Source: Patescibacteria group bacterium
GTDB taxonomy: Bacteria > Patescibacteriota > Patescibacteriia > SBBC01 > CAIJZX01
Reading direction: 5' to 3'
Length of the DNA: 64,000 nt
NCBI GenBank assembly: GCA_038065275.1
Contig: JBBTRH010000005.1
Span: 26,466-90,465, forward strand
Each line of letters opens with the position of its first letter. Position 1 is the stretch's first letter. A program made the position numbers and the translations under genes. This document shows positions 5,619 to 14,308 of this stretch, one piece after another. The notes beneath the pieces are model-generated. The model was not told the DNA's origin. It saw only the letters and a list, made by a program, of their open reading frames with translations, and searched no databases.

Positions 5619-5952
5619 CGTAAACAATCCGAAATTTGAAGTCGGGGGGGTTTCCTCCACTTCTATACGTTTCAGTTTTTCTGCCATATTCCAGTAAAAG
5701 TGAAATGACTAGTAATGTCAGATTAACATAACGTAAAAGCCCTTCGCTTCCACCTACGCTAAAGCTTCGGTGGACGAGAAAGTCACCGACGCGCTATAGC
5801 GCTTTGGCGACGGCGCGTTACGGCTGGTCAAGCCCGAGGGGTTCGCCTGCCCCGGGCTTGTCCCGAGCTTGTCGAGGGGCTGCGGGGCGCGCCGCCTGTT
5901 GATGTTCTAACTAAGAGGGCCGGAGTAACGAACGCTACAAACTAAGGATTTT

Positions 5953-7221
5953 TTATTTCAATAAATCATTAAGCTCACAAGAAAGCAGTGCTGATTTATT
6001 GAGCACGATCTCCTCTTTCTGATTTAGATTATCCGCCGTTATTCTAATAACTTTGGTGACCATACTGTCGCCGAGCATAACTTTATTTGTTTTTTTAAAA
6101 TAGTTTTCCGTTTTATTGTAAAACAAGGTGATATACTGTTTGACCTTATTACTAAGCTGGTCTTTCGGGCTAGTGGCCACTAAGGGAATTATTTTCTCAT
6201 TAATTTTTGTCGGTAAATCACCATCTTTAAAAATTATCCAGTATTCGCTTAGTGCAAAACGGACTACCGCGCTATTTTGATCTTCAGTGTCATAGAAAAA
6301 ACCAAAATAGTATATACCACTAAGAATGTCTTTTTGAACAATAATTTCGCGTAATGTCGTTACCACATGTATTTCGTACTTATCAACCAGTTTGAAATAA
6401 CTTTCTCGCCAGTTCGCTAGCCAATTTTCAATATAGATCCGATCTACAAATAACGGGAGGAGGTCTTGTTTTAAATTTTCATCGTTTACTTCATTCATCT
6501 GGAATGTGAGTTTGTCAAAAAGCGCACGGGGATTTTTTACGTCAATGCCCTTGGCGACTAGATAATCAAAATCGGGCACAATCTTTTTGTTCATGTACCA
6601 TAAAAGATCGTAGATATCTCGCCCCTTCTCCTCATATACAGCCTTCCCCACTCCACGAGTCCCACGCAGAAAAATCGCCGCAATCTTGCTGGCCATCAGC
6701 GCCCCCATATTGTAGGTCACAATCACAAATGAAAGCTGGTCTCGGTTTATCGGTATACGTTCAGTCACCGTCTTAGAAGGCGCAAAGTGATTGAGGTCAA
6801 GTTTCACATGCACCTGTTTCGAAGGATGCCCCAGGCTTAATACTTCACCGACATTGAATTTAAGCAACAGTCCTCTCCCGGTAACAGTTTTTATGGTGAG
6901 AAAATTAGTATCAGCAGCGTAGGTGTTGGAAAAGTGCTCGGCCATATCATTCACTAATTCATCCAAATACTTCTCCGTTATCGCGTGCGCGACTTCAAAA
7001 TCCAAGTCAACTGACATACGGTTAAGATCGTGGCAGATGCGCAACGCCGAACCGCCGTACATAATCCACTTGCTGTATTCAGGATGGCGGTAAATATAAT
7101 TGAGCACGTAAAACTGTAACTCTTCTTTGAGCGCGTTGCGACGTGTCTCTACATCAATCCCACCATAAGCTATAATGTCATCGAGTTTCCTTTGTAATAT
7201 CGTTAGTATCTGTTCACTCAT
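5953..7221 (-). CDS. abiEii: AbiEii/AbiGii-family nucleotidyltransferase toxin (type IV TA, DUF1814)
   Basis: 422 aa, AT-rich; YGGSALRICHDLNRMSVDLDF matches the AbiEii NTase core; 8-nt overlap with upstream partner. Confidence 0.7.
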   Translation of the reverse strand: MSEQILTILQRKLDDIIAYGGIDVETRRNALKEELQFYVLNYIYRHPEYSKWIMYGGSALRICHDLNRMSVDLDFEVAHAITEKYLDELVNDMAEHFSNTYAADTNFLTIKTVTGRGLLLKFNVGEVLSLGHPSKQVHVKLDLNHFAPSKTVTERIPINRDQLSFVIVTYNMGALMASKIAAIFLRGTRGVGKAVYEEKGRDIYDLLWYMNKKIVPDFDYLVAKGIDVKNPRALFDKLTFQMNEVNDENLKQDLLPLFVDRIYIENWLANWRESYFKLVDKYEIHVVTTLREIIVQKDILSGIYYFGFFYDTEDQNSAVVRFALSEYWIIFKDGDLPTKINEKIIPLVATSPKDQLSNKVKQYITLFYNKTENYFKKTNKVMLGDSMVTKVIRITADNLNQKEEIVLNKSALLSCELNDLLK

Positions 7222-7831
7222 GTAAGTATTTCTTAATCATTGCATGAAACTTTTCCTGCTCGGACTTATCCATCTGATCAAAGTCAATTCGCAGGTTTTC
7301 AATCAGTGTCTCAATTTTTCCTAATGCGGGTCTGCGAAACTGGTTCGTTCTGAAATAGAGTAAGTCGAACAGTGCTTTTGATGGAGAAGCGACGAAACAA
7401 TCAAACTTCGCTTTCGCTAAAGAGAAATCTGTAAATAGTGATTTCTGGATGGACTGGTAGGCAAAATTTCCAACTCTTGTCTTATACTCCCTTGTAACTT
7501 TAGGCGTAACCGAGGTAACGGAGTGTATCGTCTCTGTGGTGAGATCATAATACTGAAGCGCCGCCCACGAGCTAACGTACGACGGCGTACGAATGACGTT
7601 TGCGAGATAGAATGAGTATGAAATGTCATTTTTGTTCTTGTCGTAAAAATCCGCAGCAACATACAGTCCATTCCTAAGCTGGACAATTTCATTGTGCTTC
7701 AAGCCGCGGCTGATGTAGGTGTTTATTGTCGCGTCGGTAAGCCCAAGCTGTTTACCAAGCTGATAAACGGTATTTTTGCCAAAATGGGGCAAGGGTTTTA
7801 GCTGTTCTATGAGGTTTTTTCGGCTTTTCAT
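7214..7831 (-). CDS. abiEi: AbiEi-family antitoxin/transcriptional regulator
   Basis: 205 aa; N-terminal winged-helix-like region; directly upstream of and overlapping abiEii. Confidence 0.6.
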   Translation of the reverse strand: MKSRKNLIEQLKPLPHFGKNTVYQLGKQLGLTDATINTYISRGLKHNEIVQLRNGLYVAADFYDKNKNDISYSFYLANVIRTPSYVSSWAALQYYDLTTETIHSVTSVTPKVTREYKTRVGNFAYQSIQKSLFTDFSLAKAKFDCFVASPSKALFDLLYFRTNQFRRPALGKIETLIENLRIDFDQMDKSEQEKFHAMIKKYLHE

Positions 7832-7929
7832 AAGTATGACAGTAGTGTATCATATATGAAAAGTGGTGTCAAATGGTACTTATTCAATGACCAAAAGCGG
7901 CCTCCATTCCCGCACGCCCTCTCCTTCCG

Positions 7930-7970
7930 GCGCCCCGCCGCCGCATTTTCCCGCCGCCCGAGGGGTTCGT
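7930..7970. repeat. IR-A left copy: 41-bp perfect inverted repeat (GC-rich junction element)
   Basis: GCGCCCCGCCGCCGCATTTTCCCGCCGCCCGAGGGGTTCGT; exact reverse complement at 11353-11393; followed by a short hairpin and GCGCCGC. Confidence 0.8.
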
Positions 7971-7998
7971 GCCCCGCTTTGCGGGGCGCGCCGCTAAA

Positions 7999-8280: not shown

Positions 8281-9339
8281 CTATGTCACATTATTACCTA
8301 GTCCGCCGTCTTCTTTAGGTTCTGTACTCGATACGCTTCCAGAGCTTAAATCACCTTGATCTTGAATATCAGAAACAGTAATTGGGCTGTTGTTAGATCC
8401 AATCGAATCAGTGGAAGAGGCAACTAATCCCTCCTCAGATTTTGCCAATTCTTGGTCCGTTTGTGTTGACTCTTTTAGTTTTTTAACTTTTTCAAGTAAA
8501 TCCTTGTTAAATTTCACTTTAAAATGCTGACCAGCATACTTCATAAATTGATCTGATTGGTACATGTGAAAAGAAACATTGGCGCGCTCCTTTACTTCTT
8601 TTAACAATTCATGTCTTGCGCCAATAATCGTTGCACCATTTAATCCACTAACCTTCCACCACCAATCCTCTTTTTGTTCGTCAGTTACAAAAATAATAGG
8701 GGTTTTTGCTTCTTGTGCCTTATCAAGTATCTGCATCCAAATAATAAGGTCGCCGAATTTACTCGTTCCAGTCTTATCTTCCTTGTCCTTTCTTTTCCTA
8801 TCAGAATAACCTGGCGGTATTTCTTTTTCGTATCTAGCCTCCCCATCTTTATATATTTCATTCAGCCTTTTATTGTCAAATGGCTTTCCGACCCTATTTT
8901 TTAATATTCGATTCAGCTCGATCTCTACTTTATCTTTATTCAAAAAGTCACAATACTTATTTTTTGATAAAACCACTTCTTTTTGAATAGTTTTAAAATT
9001 TAGTGATATTTTTTTTAGAATCAATTTAGAATCAAAAAGTTTATCAATTTCCTGTTCTGTAGTATTTAAAAGGCTAATACTTTCGTGGTGAGCCTTTTCT
9101 TGGGAGTGAATTACATACAGTCTATCTCGATAATATTCCAAAGCCACCTGGTGAGGTATCCAAACCCTCCCTCTTTTTTGTAACTCTTTAAGAATGATTA
9201 TTAGCTTAGCCCTTGCTTGTTGTGGGATGCGATATAGACTTAAAAGTACATTTGTGTCAAAAACAAACGTTGCTTCATCCCAAAGCTTAATAAAACTTCT
9301 CTTTGATGGCTTATTATACTCCGGAAAAAGATCTCTCAT
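8281..9339 (-). CDS. PIN-like domain protein (DUF4935-like)
   Basis: N-terminal FVFDTNVLLSLY PIN motif, further acidic residues, DEQKEDWWWK block; low-complexity S/T/D-rich C-terminal tail. Confidence 0.55.
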   Translation of the reverse strand: MRDLFPEYNKPSKRSFIKLWDEATFVFDTNVLLSLYRIPQQARAKLIIILKELQKRGRVWIPHQVALEYYRDRLYVIHSQEKAHHESISLLNTTEQEIDKLFDSKLILKKISLNFKTIQKEVVLSKNKYCDFLNKDKVEIELNRILKNRVGKPFDNKRLNEIYKDGEARYEKEIPPGYSDRKRKDKEDKTGTSKFGDLIIWMQILDKAQEAKTPIIFVTDEQKEDWWWKVSGLNGATIIGARHELLKEVKERANVSFHMYQSDQFMKYAGQHFKVKFNKDLLEKVKKLKESTQTDQELAKSEEGLVASSTDSIGSNNSPITVSDIQDQGDLSSGSVSSTEPKEDGGLGNNVT

Positions 9340-9438
9340 GCTTGGACTATTTAACTTCAGATGGGTTATCTCTCATGGGCTTGTTGTGCCAATGTTATTA
9401 CAAATCACAGAATAAACTCACAAAAACATTACATGTGT

Positions 9439-10236
9439 CTAAAAAATAGTAGTGACTTTATTGTACAACATTGACAAACAATCCTGCTTCATACGGAATT
9501 TCGTCCCATGATTGTGTCCGGTGCGAGCATCAAAATCAACGAGTATTTTTCCCTCTTCAAGTGCTTTCAAAAACCCTTCAAAACTGAATTTCTGTAGCAT
9601 CATCACTTTTGTATAATGATAGTATTCTTTCTTTTTATTAACATAAACTTCGGCCTGGACGTAAAAGGTATTTAAAAGCTTTGTACCCGCTTTATGCTCT
9701 AAGTCATCGAATCCCCAGTACGGCTGTGGATTTAATTCGCCAAGCCCAACACGTTTTTTAACCAGTTCAAGCCATCCCTTGTGTCGTGCATCAACTCCAG
9801 ACGCTTTAAATGAAATTAAAATTTTACGCTTATTTCGGTCGATTACGACTTTGAAACCTCGATCACTACGCGATTGTCCATGGATTGTTTGCCTAAAACT
9901 CATTTCTCCTGCTGGATACTTTTTTCCGTCCTCTTGGTGAGCCCATCCATATTGTGGTAATAAAACCTGTGGGACAAAGCGAATCGCTCGTGGTGACGGT
10001 TCAATATGAAAAAGTGTCGTGAGTGAAGTAGAGTTAAGTCTTTGAGTTTTTAACTCCCACTCAGCGGCATTAGGGATTGGTAGGTTATTTTCCTTAATGC
10101 CCAGTAAATCTTCAAGTGTATTCCCAATGCCACCGGCGTTTCCTCGACGTGCATTTGGGACCCACCCCAATTCTGAAATCTCTTTTAGCCGCTCAACTAG
10201 TGCTTCTTTAGTATAAATGACTGGTTTCTTTGCCAT
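9439..10236 (-). CDS. type II restriction endonuclease, MvaI/BcnI-like
   Basis: ORF 9439..10323 trimmed to MAKKPVIYTKEAL; last gene of C-M-R operon; family assignment by recall, not search. Confidence 0.5.
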   Translation of the reverse strand: MAKKPVIYTKEALVERLKEISELGWVPNARRGNAGGIGNTLEDLLGIKENNLPIPNAAEWELKTQRLNSTSLTTLFHIEPSPRAIRFVPQVLLPQYGWAHQEDGKKYPAGEMSFRQTIHGQSRSDRGFKVVIDRNKRKILISFKASGVDARHKGWLELVKKRVGLGELNPQPYWGFDDLEHKAGTKLLNTFYVQAEVYVNKKKEYYHYTKVMMLQKFSFEGFLKALEEGKILVDFDARTGHNHGTKFRMKQDCLSMLYNKVTTIF

Positions 10237-10240
10237 ACAG

Positions 10241-10996
10241 TTATAAAAGTTTTGACTGGGATTGATGTTGCTTAATCCTTTTACGCGCCATTTCACAGTA
10301 ATCGGGAGAAATATCAATGCCAATATACTTGCGTTTATGGTTAATTGCGGAAATGGCCGTCGTCCCTGACCCCATAAATGGATCTAAAACTACTTTAGCG
10401 TCTGTTGCCGAAATTATTCGGTCAATTAACTTTACAGGAAACGCGGCAGGGTGTTTATTGTTCATTTCTTGGGTAAACTCCCACACATCTCCGAGAGCAT
10501 TTGCTTTATCGGCAAGCTTAAATTTTGGTTTAGCAATCAAATAAATTACTTCGTAAGTCGGTAAAAAGTAACCGGCGTTAAAATTCAACCCACCTTTTCT
10601 TTTCCAAATGATTATCTGGCGCACGGGAAAACCAGCCACAATATCTTGTCGATCTTGCAAAAGTCCCGCCTGAACACGCCATTTATGATTGTAAAAAATT
10701 GCGCCATTCTCAGGAATAATTCTTAGCATTTCGGTAAGGGAGTCTCTTTGCCACTTCACATACTTTTCGTGCGGCATACTGTCATCATGATGAGAGTACC
10801 CATTTTGAAGTGCCGCGTTTGCCCATTTTCCACCCCGACCATCTTTCATTCCGTTTCCAGTTGAATTTTTTAGGTTATACGGAGGCGAAGTAACGACTAA
10901 ATCTACCGACCCGTCGGGTATTTGTTTCATTACATCAACGGCATTTCCGCAAATATTTTTGTTGATAAAATCTAATGGATAGTTGAGCTTTTTCAT
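10241..10996 (-). CDS. DNA methyltransferase, beta-class amino-MTase (N4-cytosine or N6-adenine)
   Basis: DLVVTSPPYN (motif IV) N-terminal and FDPFMGSGTT (motif I) C-terminal = beta-class order. Confidence 0.8.
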   Translation of the reverse strand: MKKLNYPLDFINKNICGNAVDVMKQIPDGSVDLVVTSPPYNLKNSTGNGMKDGRGGKWANAALQNGYSHHDDSMPHEKYVKWQRDSLTEMLRIIPENGAIFYNHKWRVQAGLLQDRQDIVAGFPVRQIIIWKRKGGLNFNAGYFLPTYEVIYLIAKPKFKLADKANALGDVWEFTQEMNNKHPAAFPVKLIDRIISATDAKVVLDPFMGSGTTAISAINHKRKYIGIDISPDYCEMARKRIKQHQSQSKLL

Positions 10997-10997
10997 A

Positions 10998-11273
10998 TTA
11001 CTTTAGAAGATCATCACTGGAAATTTCTAACGCTTGAGCAAGTCTTGCCACTGTCGAAAGAGTCACGTTTCTTTTACCATTCTCAATGCCACTAATGTAC
11101 GCTCTGTCAGCGCCAATTTTCGAAGCAATGTCTCCTTGGGACATTCCTTTCTTCGTCCGTATCTTTTTGAGATTATCGCCTAAACGGGAATTGATCGTAT
11201 CGGTATTCACTTGACCAATATACTCCCTTGTTGCACTATAGAGCAATAGTGTACTATAGTACACAAAGCACAT
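10998..11273 (-). CDS. controller (C) protein, XRE-family HTH regulator of the R-M system
   Basis: MSQGDIASKIGADRAYISGIENGKRNVTLSTVARLAQAL HTH; first gene of C-M-R operon; true start probably internal (GTG ~11210). Confidence 0.65.
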   Translation of the reverse strand: MCFVYYSTLLLYSATREYIGQVNTDTINSRLGDNLKKIRTKKGMSQGDIASKIGADRAYISGIENGKRNVTLSTVARLAQALEISSDDLLK

Positions 11274-11352
11274 TGGGGAGCCGAAAGCGCGCGCACGGGA
11301 GGGCGGGGCAAGCGCTTATCTCTACAGGCGGCGCATCCCGTAGCAACGGGAT

Positions 11353-11393
11353 ACGAACCCCTCGGGCGGCGGGAAAATGCGGCGGCGGGGCGC
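11353..11393. repeat. IR-A right copy (reverse complement of 7930-7970)
   Basis: 41/41 identity in inverted orientation. Confidence 0.8.
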
Positions 11394-11486
11394 GGGCGGG
11401 CGGAATTCCCCCTTAGACCCCCTTCCGCCCGCCCGAATCGCCTAAAACTGCCCTTCAAAATAGGTTCGAGCGGCGTTCAGCAATTT

Positions 11487-11580
11487 CCACCAAATGAAAC
11501 TTCCGCGAAAGTCTACGGTCAAATTCCAGGGTTTAGCCAATATCCACCGCACGCTTTTATCCACCAGGCGGCGGTTCGTA
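11487..11580. repeat. IR-B left copy: 94-bp inverted repeat
   Basis: reverse complement of 13901-13994 with a single mismatch; creates artefactual ORF 11442..11672 (-) that mimics the recombinase C-terminus. Confidence 0.85.
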
Positions 11581-11736
11581 GCCCCAGAAGGGGCTAGGTA
11601 TGAAAATGGTCGTGTGATATTACCATTTTCGTACCTTCCAATTTTTTCCGGTTCCGCTCCGAAGCGGAACACGAAGCAAGTTTTTCCGAATCCCGCGCTT
11701 CACTTCCAGTAGTAAGAATGGTTAACTAATAGCACT

Positions 11737-12534
11737 ATGAGCATAAGAATTATCATGCGAGACAATAGCGGTAATAAGTTCTGGATTATTACCCCAAACA
11801 TTAGTATGTATAGCTTTGCGTCCAAATCAAAAAACGTGACTTTCTTGGAAATCTTTTATCGCTTTGCACAGGTTCTAGTTAAACCGCGGAAAGGGCTAAC
11901 AAAGGGTGAAGAGGAGAAGATACTTTTGTCGAGAAAACGGGTCTTGGTTGAGTTAAACAATAAGGTAATGGCGTTAAAATACCTTGCCAACGAATGTAAA
12001 AAGCAGGGCGAGAAATTAATTGCGAGAAAAGATAGCAAAAAGAGAATATACGACTATAAACCATATCAAGTTTTTCTGGCTCTTTGTGAAAGTTATCTGG
12101 ACACTGTACACAGTACCTACGATTGCATCGCTGATCTGGACGGGTTTTTAGGCAAGAAATATGCCCGTGCTATCAATAAAGAACAATGGTTTAAGATCGA
12201 TATGGATTTAAGAAACGTTTTTCATCACAACCAAAGCCCTCTAGTTACTATTGAGAAAGGGAAGGTAGATTTCACCATAGAAAAGCTACCAAGGAGCCCA
12301 AGATTTTTGACTCCGGCAATGAAAAACCCACACGGACGATACGAATTCTCTTTAGACCCAAAGGATTTGGGCGAAGACATTCTTACATTTCTTGAAAAAT
12401 GGGCAAAGCAATATTTGGATTTGATTGATGGCAACGAGAGCATTGACGCAATTGCGGGTTATAAAAAAGATGGTGGTGTAAGAACCAAGAAAGTCACCTT
12501 AAAAGAACTTATGAAACGAGTCGTTGCTACCTAA
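11737..12534 (+). CDS. hypothetical protein (265 aa) upstream of serine recombinase
   Basis: AT-rich ORF 6 nt upstream of recombinase start; no motif recognised; start may be an internal Met. Confidence 0.4.
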   Translation: MSIRIIMRDNSGNKFWIITPNISMYSFASKSKNVTFLEIFYRFAQVLVKPRKGLTKGEEEKILLSRKRVLVELNNKVMALKYLANECKKQGEKLIARKDSKKRIYDYKPYQVFLALCESYLDTVHSTYDCIADLDGFLGKKYARAINKEQWFKIDMDLRNVFHHNQSPLVTIEKGKVDFTIEKLPRSPRFLTPAMKNPHGRYEFSLDPKDLGEDILTFLEKWAKQYLDLIDGNESIDAIAGYKKDGGVRTKKVTLKELMKRVVAT

Positions 12535-12539
12535 AAACT

Positions 12540-14030
12540 ATGCGGTATTTTCTTTACGCTCGAAAATCAACCGAGGATGAAGAACATCAGATCATGTCCA
12601 TTGAGGCACAGCTCTTTGAGTTGTCCGAATATGCCAAGCGAGAAAAGATAACCATTGCCGAAAAGTTTATTGAAAGTAAAAGCGCGAAAAGTCCCGGTCG
12701 GGAAATTTTCGGCCAGATGATTGTCAAAATACAGGAAAGTAAAGAACCAATCGGCATTCTCGCTTGGCATCCTGATCGCTTGGCCCGAAATAGTATTGAT
12801 GGTGGTCAAATTATCTACCTCGTCGACGGCAAGAAAATCGCGGCCTTGCGTTTCCCGACATTCTGGTTTGAACCGACACCGCAAGGGCTATTCATGCTCC
12901 AAGTCGCGTTTGGCCAATCGAAATACTATTCGGACAACTTAAGCGAGAACGTGAAGCGCGGGATTCGTCAAAAACTCAGACGTGGTGAGTCCCCAAATTA
13001 TGCGGCAATCGGGTACGTCAATAATTTTAAAACCCGGACAATTGAACCCGATCCGTTCAAAGGGCGTGTCATCGCTAAAGCATTTGAAGAATATGCGAAA
13101 GGAATGCACACCCTCGAAAGTCTAGGCAAGCGTCTGAGTTTTTGGGGTATAGTCAGTCGGACCGGAAAGCCGCTCCCAAAAGCAACGTTGAGCCGAATGT
13201 TGACCAATCCGGTTCATTGCGGATTGATTCGGCATAATGGCGAAACATATCCGGGCGGTTTTGCCGCTAACGTCTCGATGGAGTTATTCGAAAAAGTCCA
13301 GAAAGTCTATAAGCAAAATCAAAAAGGTCATCATTTTCGTAAGCGTCATCATTTTGCTTTAACTGGACTATTGAAGTGCGGAGAATGTGGCGCGGCAATA
13401 ACCGCCCAAAATACCAAAGGTCATGGCGGTTGGTATGTGTATTATCGCTGTACCAAACGTCTTGGTCCTTGTAAGCAAGGATACATTCAACAAGAGCGGC
13501 TTTCCGATCTGATCCGCGCAAAGGTTCGAGAAGTTGCAATAAGCGAAGACTGGGCGAAGAAAATGTTGGATAAGGTAACGATGTGGGAAAATGAGATCGC
13601 CCAGTCTTCGCAGTCTTCCGCCCAAAATCTCAAAACAAGGATGAAGGAAACAGAATTACAGCTTGACCGCATAGTGAATGCTTTCCTTGATGGCTCTATT
13701 GAAAAGGCTGTTTATTTGGAAAAGAAAGATGCATTGATTAAAACTCAAACTGGCCTTGAACAGAAAAAGGCGGATTTTGGGCGGAAGACCCTTTATTGGA
13801 TCGAACCTTTGCGCCAGTGGATATTAGACGCTCAAAAGGCCGAAAAACTTGCTTCGTCGAACGATTTACCTGAATTGAAATCGTTCGCGGAAAAAATTGG
13901 AACGAACCGCCGCCTGGTGGATAAAAGCGTGCGGTGGATATTGGCTAAACCCTGGAATTTGACCGTAAACTTTCGCGGAAGTTTCATTTGGTGGGCCCCC
14001 CGGGACTCGAACCCGGAACTCTCAGCTTAA
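12540..14030 (+). CDS. large serine recombinase (resolvase/invertase N-domain + recombinase domain + zinc-ribbon)
   Basis: YARKSTEDE...SIEAQ catalytic Ser motif near N-terminus; 496 aa; Cys cluster CGECG...C..C; 3' end runs through IR-B and into the tRNA-Lys gene on the opposite strand. Confidence 0.8.
   Translation: MRYFLYARKSTEDEEHQIMSIEAQLFELSEYAKREKITIAEKFIESKSAKSPGREIFGQMIVKIQESKEPIGILAWHPDRLARNSIDGGQIIYLVDGKKIAALRFPTFWFEPTPQGLFMLQVAFGQSKYYSDNLSENVKRGIRQKLRRGESPNYAAIGYVNNFKTRTIEPDPFKGRVIAKAFEEYAKGMHTLESLGKRLSFWGIVSRTGKPLPKATLSRMLTNPVHCGLIRHNGETYPGGFAANVSMELFEKVQKVYKQNQKGHHFRKRHHFALTGLLKCGECGAAITAQNTKGHGGWYVYYRCTKRLGPCKQGYIQQERLSDLIRAKVREVAISEDWAKKMLDKVTMWENEIAQSSQSSAQNLKTRMKETELQLDRIVNAFLDGSIEKAVYLEKKDALIKTQTGLEQKKADFGRKTLYWIEPLRQWILDAQKAEKLASSNDLPELKSFAEKIGTNRRLVDKSVRWILAKPWNLTVNFRGSFIWWAPRDSNPELSA
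13901..13994. repeat. IR-B right copy (includes CCA end and 3' flank of tRNA-Lys)
   Basis: 93/94 identity to reverse complement of 11487-11580. Confidence 0.85.
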
Positions 14031-14063
14031 AAGGCTGATACTCTACCATTGAGTTAGGGACCC
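13992..14063 (-). tRNA. tRNA-Lys (anticodon UUU), CCA encoded at 13989-13991
   Basis: cloverleaf on minus strand: acceptor GGGUCCC/GGGGCCC, D-arm, anticodon loop CUUUUAA, T-arm CCGGGUUCGAGUCCCGG. Confidence 0.8.
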
Positions 14064-14308
14064 ATGTTGTAAACACTGCTTGCTTTAGAAAGGACGAGAT
14101 GTGTTTCACGTTGAGCCCCGACGTCCCGCTTACGGCGGGAGTCGGGGTCCCGAATCCCGCTTAGCGGGACTTCGGGATTAGGGACCCAAAACTGCGCTGA
14201 TGCTAGCATATTCAGCGTTATGGAGCAAGCGTCGCCGGTCCCCGATTCCCTTGACGCTCAAGCGACTGGGGCTTATGCTTCATCTGCAAACACTAACATC
14301 AGATCAAT

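Follow-up and report, generated by a model that had tools for sequence, protein, structure and literature searches.

The stretch analyzed here (the window, 64,000 nucleotides of contig JBBTRH010000005.1 from a Patescibacteria group bacterium) carries a cassette bounded by a pair of long inverted repeats (IRs), the right-hand copy of which ends in a tRNA-Lys gene. Two open reading frames (ORFs), of 265 and 496 aa, lie between the repeat arms, as an initial annotation made from the letters alone had reported and as ORF and domain annotation bore out; the longer one encodes a large serine recombinase (LSR). The cassette is probably the recombinase end of a small integrative island located at the tRNA-Lys gene's 3' end and holding two inverted copies of an attP-like attachment (att) site. 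The features of the cassette and its left border are listed below, with P and P' denoting the half-sites on the side of the element and B' the half-site on the side of the tRNA.

11442-11486, minus strand: P' half-site, the native recombinase tail KLLNAARTYFEGQF and its stop, with TGAAC...CGAACC and GAAC 20 nt from the core
11487-11579, minus strand: left arm (IR-L), the inverted copy, P arm and core; spare recombinase 3' end
11580-11700, plus strand: conserved spacer upstream of the LSR, with hairpins
11737-12534, plus strand: 265-aa ORF between the arms, with no Pfam, PADLOC or PHROG match
12540-14030, plus strand: LSR, 496 aa, in its 'integrated' form, with Resolvase, Recombinase and Zn_ribbon_recom domains
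13902-13994, plus strand: right arm (IR-R), P arm and core, encoding recombinase residues 455-485 (TNRRLVDKSV...FIWW)
13989-13994, plus strand: core TGGTGG, reverse complement of tRNA C71-C72-A73-C-C-A, the region of identity
13989-14063, minus strand: tRNA-Lys(UUU), full length and intact (ARAGORN and Rfam, 70 bits)

Repeat search and local alignment identified 11487-11579 and 13902-13994 as an inverted repeat of 93 nt, without gaps and with a single mismatch (T at 11513 against C at 13968), and a match of this kind cannot have arisen by chance. The pair had initially been given 94 nt; the inverted repeat stands, while the 94th pair (11580/13901) is unmatched. Only the last 6 nt of the tRNA-Lys gene, CCACCA (C71-C72-A73-CCA), belong to the right arm, and the junction 6 nt inside the 3' end leaves the tRNA gene intact, as in islands at tRNA genes. 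The LSR frame crosses the right arm (codons 455-485) and stops 12 codons further on, within the tRNA gene, as had already been noticed. The left arm had been taken for an inverted duplicate of the tRNA 3' flank; its actual source is the 3' end of the recombinase gene itself, not host DNA.

The 496-aa ORF is assigned to the LSRs because of its Resolvase, Recombinase and Zn_ribbon_recom domains. PF00239 matches residues 4-150 (E = 2e-19), with a YARKS motif whose Ser10 is conserved in the alignment, and PF07508 and PF13408 are both present, with the inserted coiled coil of LSRs indicated by the long helices of a modelled relative (P0027, below). The C-terminal domain of the A118 integrase is also matched (E = 1e-5). 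The best PHROG family is integrase, and the catalytic domain additionally gives a weak 'DNA invertase' match. Identity to characterized phage or plasmid integrases is 22-29%, homologs at 50-70% identity number in the thousands, and exact-protein look-ups for the window recombinase and for P0121 returned no record.

The C-termini of the homologs split into two classes, one with tails antisense to tRNA genes and the other with a single conserved native tail. Examples of the tRNA-derived class, WSGRQDLNLRP...APKASAL and WSGCRESNP, are antisense translations of tRNA genes, with TGG, the reverse complement of CCA, serving as a nearly invariant LSR Trp codon. The native-tail class, WSQLLNEVRTFFE..., accounts for 21 of the 120 closest cluster representatives, and its consensus across the family is xLLNEARTYFE followed by a stop. 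Both endings occur in the window: the last 12 codons of the LSR (APRDSNPELSA and the stop) correspond to the tRNA read in antisense, and the left arm, read in its minus-strand frame, gives ...TNRRLVDKSVRWILAKPWNLTVDFRGSFIWW-KLLNAARTYFEGQF and a stop, the LSR C-terminus with the native ending. The initial annotation had asked whether comparison with homologs would show a C-terminus that is genuinely this long and a repeat that is coding rather than a recombination site. The arm-encoded residues are indeed genuine, conserved coding sequence, but they also form part of the recombination site, and only the last 12 codons, those in the tRNA, are non-native.

The Arg codon of the native tail is CGA in 33/33 elements, compared with 48/320 for invariant Arg codons at other positions of these genes (p = 2e-24), so the tail motif is constrained as DNA, and we infer that its coding sequence also serves as a binding motif resembling the T-loop. 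The predicted structure of a native-tail relative (P0027; mean predicted local distance difference test score, pLDDT, of 78) has long helices at 338-441 between the zinc-ribbon strands, a β-hairpin and helix formed by the arm-encoded residues 456-485, a disordered linker, and a confident 16-residue helix for the native tail (508-523). Such a predicted helix fits a functional tail, and exchange of the tail may alter the activity of the enzyme.

The survey of the family covered 81 loci, namely 80 fetched genome loci and L001, with hosts from many Patescibacteria lineages, Omnitrophota, Bacteroidota, Planctomycetia and others. A minus-strand tRNA lies at or overlaps the end of the LSR ORF in 60/81, and in most of the remaining loci the contig ends there. 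Pro is the commonest target, with Gln, Ala, Lys, Trp, Glu, Ser, Phe, Arg, Asp, His, Ile and Leu also used. In 72 sources, the window included, the LSR 3' end recurs in inverted orientation upstream of the gene; the complete copies (n = 57) have a median length of 132 nt and a median identity of 99.3%, with 26 being 100% identical. Across the family the right arm ends 4-6 nt into the tRNA, outward reading of the left arm leads to the native tail consensus and its stop in nearly all loci, and the inner arm boundary always falls at conserved codons, between G and TNRR. Contigs broken inside the inverted copy end at the word lengths of assemblers (55, 77 or 99 nt), and many related contigs are only 2-4 kb long because assemblies break at the repeats; the intact copy is present on contigs of 0.64, 1.0 and 6.2 Mb. 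Two family members occupy different tRNA genes in single genomes or contigs (L097 and L104; L070/L073; L011/L016), so the elements can be multi-copy. The architecture thus marks a widespread, apparently undescribed family of small mobile defence islands and is no local oddity.

The anatomy of the sites was measured on 37 clean junctions. Each element has a core of 4-6 nt in common with the 3' end of its own tRNA (TGGTCG for Pro, TGGCTG for Gln, TGGTGG for Lys/Ala), and strand exchange in the window is placed within TGGTGG because the identity is shared there. On the tRNA side (B'), the T-loop antisense GAAC lies at +15 in 32/37 junctions, and on the P' side a nearly invariant CTGAACGAAGCTCGAACC places GAAC at +20 in 29/37. 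The acceptor and T arm of the window tRNA-Lys form the B' half of the former attB, with the T-loop antisense GAAC starting 15 nt from the core. In serine integrases the half-site motif of attB is 5 bp nearer the centre than that of attP (PMC3783163); the family sites, with GAAC at +15 versus +20, therefore show the published shift. The T-loop motif may accordingly be what the zinc-ribbon domain reads. Since the outward reading of the left arm runs into the native tail and hairpin, the left arm and its flank are attP-like. To judge from sequence, IR-L and P' together make up an internal attP-like site that is intact, and an attR (P joined to B') is formed by the right arm with the tRNA. One of the readings proposed at the outset, that of an integrative unit with its att site present as an inverted duplicate, is therefore essentially right and applies family-wide. 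In L093, at about 1830-1880, the LSR frame enters a non-tRNA sequence, GCGCGTAATCCACTCGAACTGG, with CTCGAAC near the distance of the tRNA motif, a possible pseudo-site insertion.

Outward from the native stop, the order is a GC hairpin, a GC-rich motif, a palindromic operator, a gene for an XRE-type helix-turn-helix (HTH) protein and variable cargo, and the features of this extended P' region (P'ext) are also found in relatives from other phyla. In 14 loci having enough flank, a direct copy of core and P' (attL, host DNA joined to P') closes the element past the cargo, preceded by unrelated DNA that often resembles the tRNA's own terminator. The attL and internal copies form a second inverted repeat of 145-435 nt with 85-100% identity in these loci, and the elements with attL measure 3.1-7.3 kb. 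The presence of attL in 14 relatives matches the product expected of a circle with two inverted attP sites. The cassette had been regarded as the unit; instead, the mobile element reaches leftwards through the HTH and restriction-modification (R-M) cargo. Family R-M cargo comprises ApaLI-like, HinfI, type III and C5-methyltransferase systems, and other cargo includes AAA_15/21, Fic, DUF3800, SMODS/AGS_C and some metabolic genes.

The two arms of an element evolve in concert, with 203 concerted differences (sites that distinguish two elements while the arms within an element agree) versus 82 between-arm differences over 20 related pairs, as in L070/L073 from one genome (5 vs 0), L028/L029 (19 vs 1) and the window and L001 (5 vs 3). 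The orientation of the LSR segment varies. In L084 and L085 a native-tail LSR is co-directional with the HTH, methyltransferase and restriction genes, and a metagenome scan for the arm-spacer junction yielded 14 contigs, of which L095 and L101 have a plus-strand tRNA-Pro followed by arm-spacer and LSR, and about 11 have the window arrangement. Both orientations of the LSR segment exist in nature. The suggestion that the IR pair is a ready substrate for inversion is supported indirectly by these two orientations and by the concerted arms, and the segment may flip in this organism.

In 44/46 loci, versus 2% of shuffled controls, short stretches of the element's own LSR coding sequence (12-27 nt) recur in the spacer as exact inverted patches. 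The patches, four to five short ones, follow element-specific variants, and their segments and order are constant, in gene order LFMLQ/QVAFGQ, NVKRGIR, EKLAS, AEKIG and then TNRR at the start of the arm. In the window the exact patches are AEKIG (11637-11650), EKLASS (11671-11686) and VKRGIR (11681-11703), and because two of them are in different frames, the constraint on the patches is not on protein. Extended gapped homology within the arms was as a whole not above shuffled controls, the discrete exact patches alone being significant. The spacer would be one of two things, an inverted copy of the gene, internally deleted yet kept homogenized, or a series of antisense patches within the leader of the LSR. 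The left arm was also considered as a small gene and rejected, as no start codon is conserved in the upstream frame, which is often closed within 4-12 codons; nor is any small ORF conserved.

In the proposed explanation, the att site of the LSR would lie within its own last codons, with the coding arm as P, TGG and three further nucleotides as the core, and the native tail with its stop as P'. Two inverted att copies would divide an LSR segment (spacer and gene) from a cargo segment (HTH regulator with genes for R-M or other defence). If one copy recombined with the end of the tRNA, the product would be, in order, host DNA joined to P'ext, the cargo, an inverted P'ext-P, the spacer, the LSR, and P joined to the tRNA, the right arm being the P arm of attR and the left arm that of the surviving internal attP. 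Joining the element ends would give a circle in which two complete inverted sites lie between the LSR and cargo segments. Integration would swap the native tail for tRNA-antisense junk, with a spare copy of the native end retained in the left arm. The identity of the two P arms would allow the segment that they enclose to flip, and a flip would rejoin the LSR gene to its native tail; the predicted junctions are ...GGCGGCGGTTCGT joined to TCCAATTTTTTCCGC (left arm and gene end) and GCCCCTTCTGGGGCT joined to ACGAACCGCCGCC by the tRNA. Pairings other than attP with attB do not recombine (PMC3783163). As attP and attR, the pair that the LSR itself would have to join for a flip in place, are thus reported not to recombine, homologous recombination between the arms is the likelier route of a flip, and acting on identical arms it would also account for their homogenization. 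Of this explanation, the data show the architecture and that it is conserved, the three types of site, the geometry of the half-sites, the concerted arms and the presence of both orientations.

Several points weigh against this explanation. No circular form of the element was recovered, no replication or transfer genes were seen in the family elements, and no candidate recombination directionality factor (RDF) was identified, the factor that serine integrases require for excision, though not for joining attP to attB. Viral contigs gave only two truncated matches, the family being nearly absent from them. In the window there is no intact attL or second P' copy, with only attR and the internal attP intact. 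The P arm has a weak consensus among the 37 junctions, which leaves that half-site undefined. The flipped arrangement could also stem from integration through the other attP copy, and the case for any functional role of the tail consists of its conservation and a predicted helix. A phage origin of the family was rejected on account of the two truncated viral-contig matches together with the identity of at most 29% to phage and plasmid integrases.

It is possible, yet rather doubtful, that the arrangement amounts to a programmed switch. In such a switch integration would junk the C-terminal helix and lock the island, a flip would restore the full-length enzyme, mobility and directionality would be governed by the state or inversion of the DNA rather than by a separate directionality factor, and the enzyme would read the universal T-loop and CCA end of tRNAs through a coding sequence that mimics them. 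If so, T-loop mimicry would explain how the elements are retargeted to many tRNAs by changing 3 core nucleotides.

Among the other explanations, the left arm could be the decaying remnant of a second LSR gene from an old head-to-head double insertion, with no function and no ongoing recombination. The colinear inverted LSR patches in the spacer do resemble an internally deleted gene copy, and other decayed motif copies are present in the window island, but a passive remnant would diverge, and arm identity is mostly 98-100%, against differences of 4-18% between related elements. The same skeleton and inner boundary before TNRR recur across phyla, and the patches match the element's own gene exactly at the frequency given above, which makes a remnant unlikely. 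Distinctly unlikely is an autonomous transposon resembling an insertion sequence (IS), made up of arm, spacer, LSR and arm, with terminal inverted repeats of about 93 bp, a tRNA end as its target and the R-M genes as unrelated neighbours. Near-perfect inverted repeats do bound the segment in about 70 loci, many contigs are 2-4 kb long, and in L032 (940-2937) the LSR segment stands alone between two convergent tRNA-Pro genes (ggg and cgg). In an IS the repeats would be the ends of the unit and the flanks target DNA, yet the left flank is element DNA, never a variable target but always the native tail, stop, hairpin and HTH gene, and the element ends at attL, found with the same core and P' past the cargo in 14 loci. 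The short contigs are assembly breaks, and the L032 arrangement is also what would be expected if the internal site had recombined with a second tRNA, through a chromosomal rearrangement or a cassette-exchange-like event.

A phase-variation switch of the Hin/Gin type controlling neighbours such as the R-M genes, to which the initial annotation had likened the cassette, is suggested by a serine recombinase between inverted repeats, by the weak PHROG 'DNA invertase' match and by the adjacent R-M genes. Members of that group have about 190 aa, a C-terminal HTH and short hix/gix sites, whereas the protein here is a 496-aa LSR with recombinase and zinc-ribbon domains and integrase as its best PHROG family, between 93-nt arms. 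The sites have attP/attB anatomy, relatives carry attL, and a flip would change no outside promoter or gene but only the LSR's own 3' end, so that such a switch is very improbable. An origin of the repeat in faulty assembly, for instance through a fold-back or a chimeric join, can be given hardly any credence. Many related contigs end within the repeat, but ends at word length are expected of a genuine repeat, the window arms differ at one base, and the arrangement recurs in more than 70 independent assemblies from different assemblers, including contigs of 0.64, 1.0 and 6.2 Mb.

Compared with known systems, the integrative island set out above shares with phage-type LSRs (A118/LI, phiC31, Bxb1, SPbeta) the resolvase, recombinase and zinc-ribbon domains, short attP/attB-type sites, a small core and the 5-bp shift. 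It differs from them in having attP in the enzyme's own last codons, the CCA ends of many tRNA genes as targets, two inverted attP copies, no phage genes and an identity of 22-29%. In tyrosine integrases of archaeal viruses, of the SSV1 type, attP lies inside int, and integration into a tRNA gene splits int into two large parts. Integrated and free states encode different proteins in both systems, but here the enzyme is a serine recombinase, about 14 residues are lost and a spare inverted gene end is kept. The FLP/FRT system of the yeast 2-micron plasmid employs a tyrosine recombinase, and its flip serves copy-number amplification on a replicating plasmid; like the circle predicted here, that plasmid is split by two long inverted repeats, each with a recombination site, and has two isomers, whereas the present element is integrative with no replication genes seen. 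The small serine invertases Hin, Gin and Pin have about 190 aa, 26-bp sites and an enhancer, and switch other genes. They have in common with the present element the serine catalytic domain and an invertible segment bounded by inverted repeats and including the recombinase gene, but differ from its integrase-type protein, its arms of 90-200 bp and its switching of the enzyme's own 3' end alone. Tycheposons, of which 910/937 use tyrosine recombinases, are likewise small cargo islands at tRNA genes with the recombinase beside the tRNA and defence cargo, but an internal inverted att copy and a recombinase reading into the tRNA are not described there (10.1101/2020.12.28.424599).

A literature search found no description of this architecture, which is not proof that none exists. 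The arrangement would represent a layout for serine-integrase elements in which the att site lies in the coding end of the enzyme and is duplicated in inverted orientation, giving three site types and two nested inverted-repeat pairs, and this repeat layout explains why the LSR genes are so often found at the ends of contigs when uncultivated phyla are assembled from metagenomes. The family would also provide a vehicle by which genes for R-M and other defences move between bacteria whose genomes are very small, and a testable case of an enzyme whose form depends on the integration state of its element. Compact integrases of about 500 aa, aimed at a tRNA feature that is universal and at a 3-nt core, could be useful tools if retargeting obeys so simple a rule.

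The remaining features of the window island lie to the left of P', with the exception of the insertion that contains the 265-aa ORF.

5832-5902: m1, a third, weaker motif copy, which ends the AbiE module (5832-7831, minus strand)
5953-7221, minus strand: AbiEii, outer module (5832-7831)
7214-7831, minus strand: AbiEi, outer module (5832-7831)
7906-7995, plus strand: m2, inverted partial P'ext copy at the far cargo end, 50 nt at 94%
8281-9339, minus strand: PIN_8 protein, cargo module (8281-11273)
9439-10323, minus strand: MvaI/BcnI-type restriction enzyme, cargo module
10241-10996, minus strand: N4/N6 DNA methyltransferase, cargo module
10998-11273, minus strand: XRE-type HTH, cargo module
11278-11441, minus strand: P'ext, with a GC hairpin (11394-11434) and the GC-rich motif TTCGTAT-hairpin-ATGCGCCGCC...CGCGCGC
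11701-12533, plus strand: 833-bp insertion relative to the closest relative L001, containing the 265-aa ORF with a 36-nt leader

The island extends from about 5.8 to 14.0 kb at 35-46% GC, compared with 58-60% GC in the host, and the combination of AbiEi/AbiEii, R-M and PIN_8 makes the region a small defence island, in which the AbiE module would be an older outer module. The m2 copy lacks the core-proximal ~80 nt and is, from its position and remaining match, a putative decayed attL. Since its attL is decayed, the whole island can probably no longer move, and it looks like two stacked elements with decayed far junctions and an intact LSR segment and internal site. The window cassette would then be the still-intact LSR end of this island. 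No direct tRNA fragment marking the far end was found in the window. L085 carries three core-P'ext copies in one contig (1732-2057, 5647-5937 and 6937-7245), the two distal ones each behind some 50 nt from the 3' end of another recombinase allele, which suggests that cargo modules are stacked or exchanged between related elements.

In L001 the LSR, 93% identical to that of the window, occupies the same tRNA-Lys, with the RNase T and DnaB genes in synteny, and the left flank and spacer are 94% identical to those of the window but without 11701-12533. As the 265-aa gene is absent from L001, it amounts to an 833-bp insertion placed cleanly between the spacer and the start codon of the LSR. Homologs of its product occur without an LSR, some by tRNA-Ala with HxlR and thioredoxin genes and others by Abi_alpha, HicAB and Fic; the protein itself has no family match and a confident predicted structure without a PDB match. 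Of the two roles initially proposed for it, cargo agrees with the insertion and the absence from L001, and an RDF or partner role does not, since the gene is not conserved with the family. The gene is best read as cargo captured recently within the invertible segment.

The GC-rich non-coding block GCCCGAGGGGTTCG-hairpin-GCGCCGCC...GCGCTTG.CCC...CGCGCGC occurs in the window at 11278-11441, 7906-7995 and 5832-5902 and also in L014, L021, L028, L029, L034 and L062, recurring at the borders of cargo modules. Rfam searches of the window flank and ten relatives found only tRNAs, so the GC-rich motif is not a known RNA; candidate roles are a terminator, a regulatory RNA or a protein binding site. The long GC hairpin (11394-11434 in the window) has a G5-N-G5 loop, AAGGGGGTCTAAGGGGGAATT, which is present in either orientation within the same stem (L034, L053 and L021 versus L043, L058 and L072), as if the loop itself had been inverted. 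Finally, an 11-nt sequence at the 5' end of the tRNA-Lys gene, TTAGGGACCCA (antisense, 14054-14064), is repeated directly at 14169-14179, 115 nt further on and inside a hairpin-rich stretch upstream of the tRNA, and could reflect chance or a remnant of a tRNA fragment.

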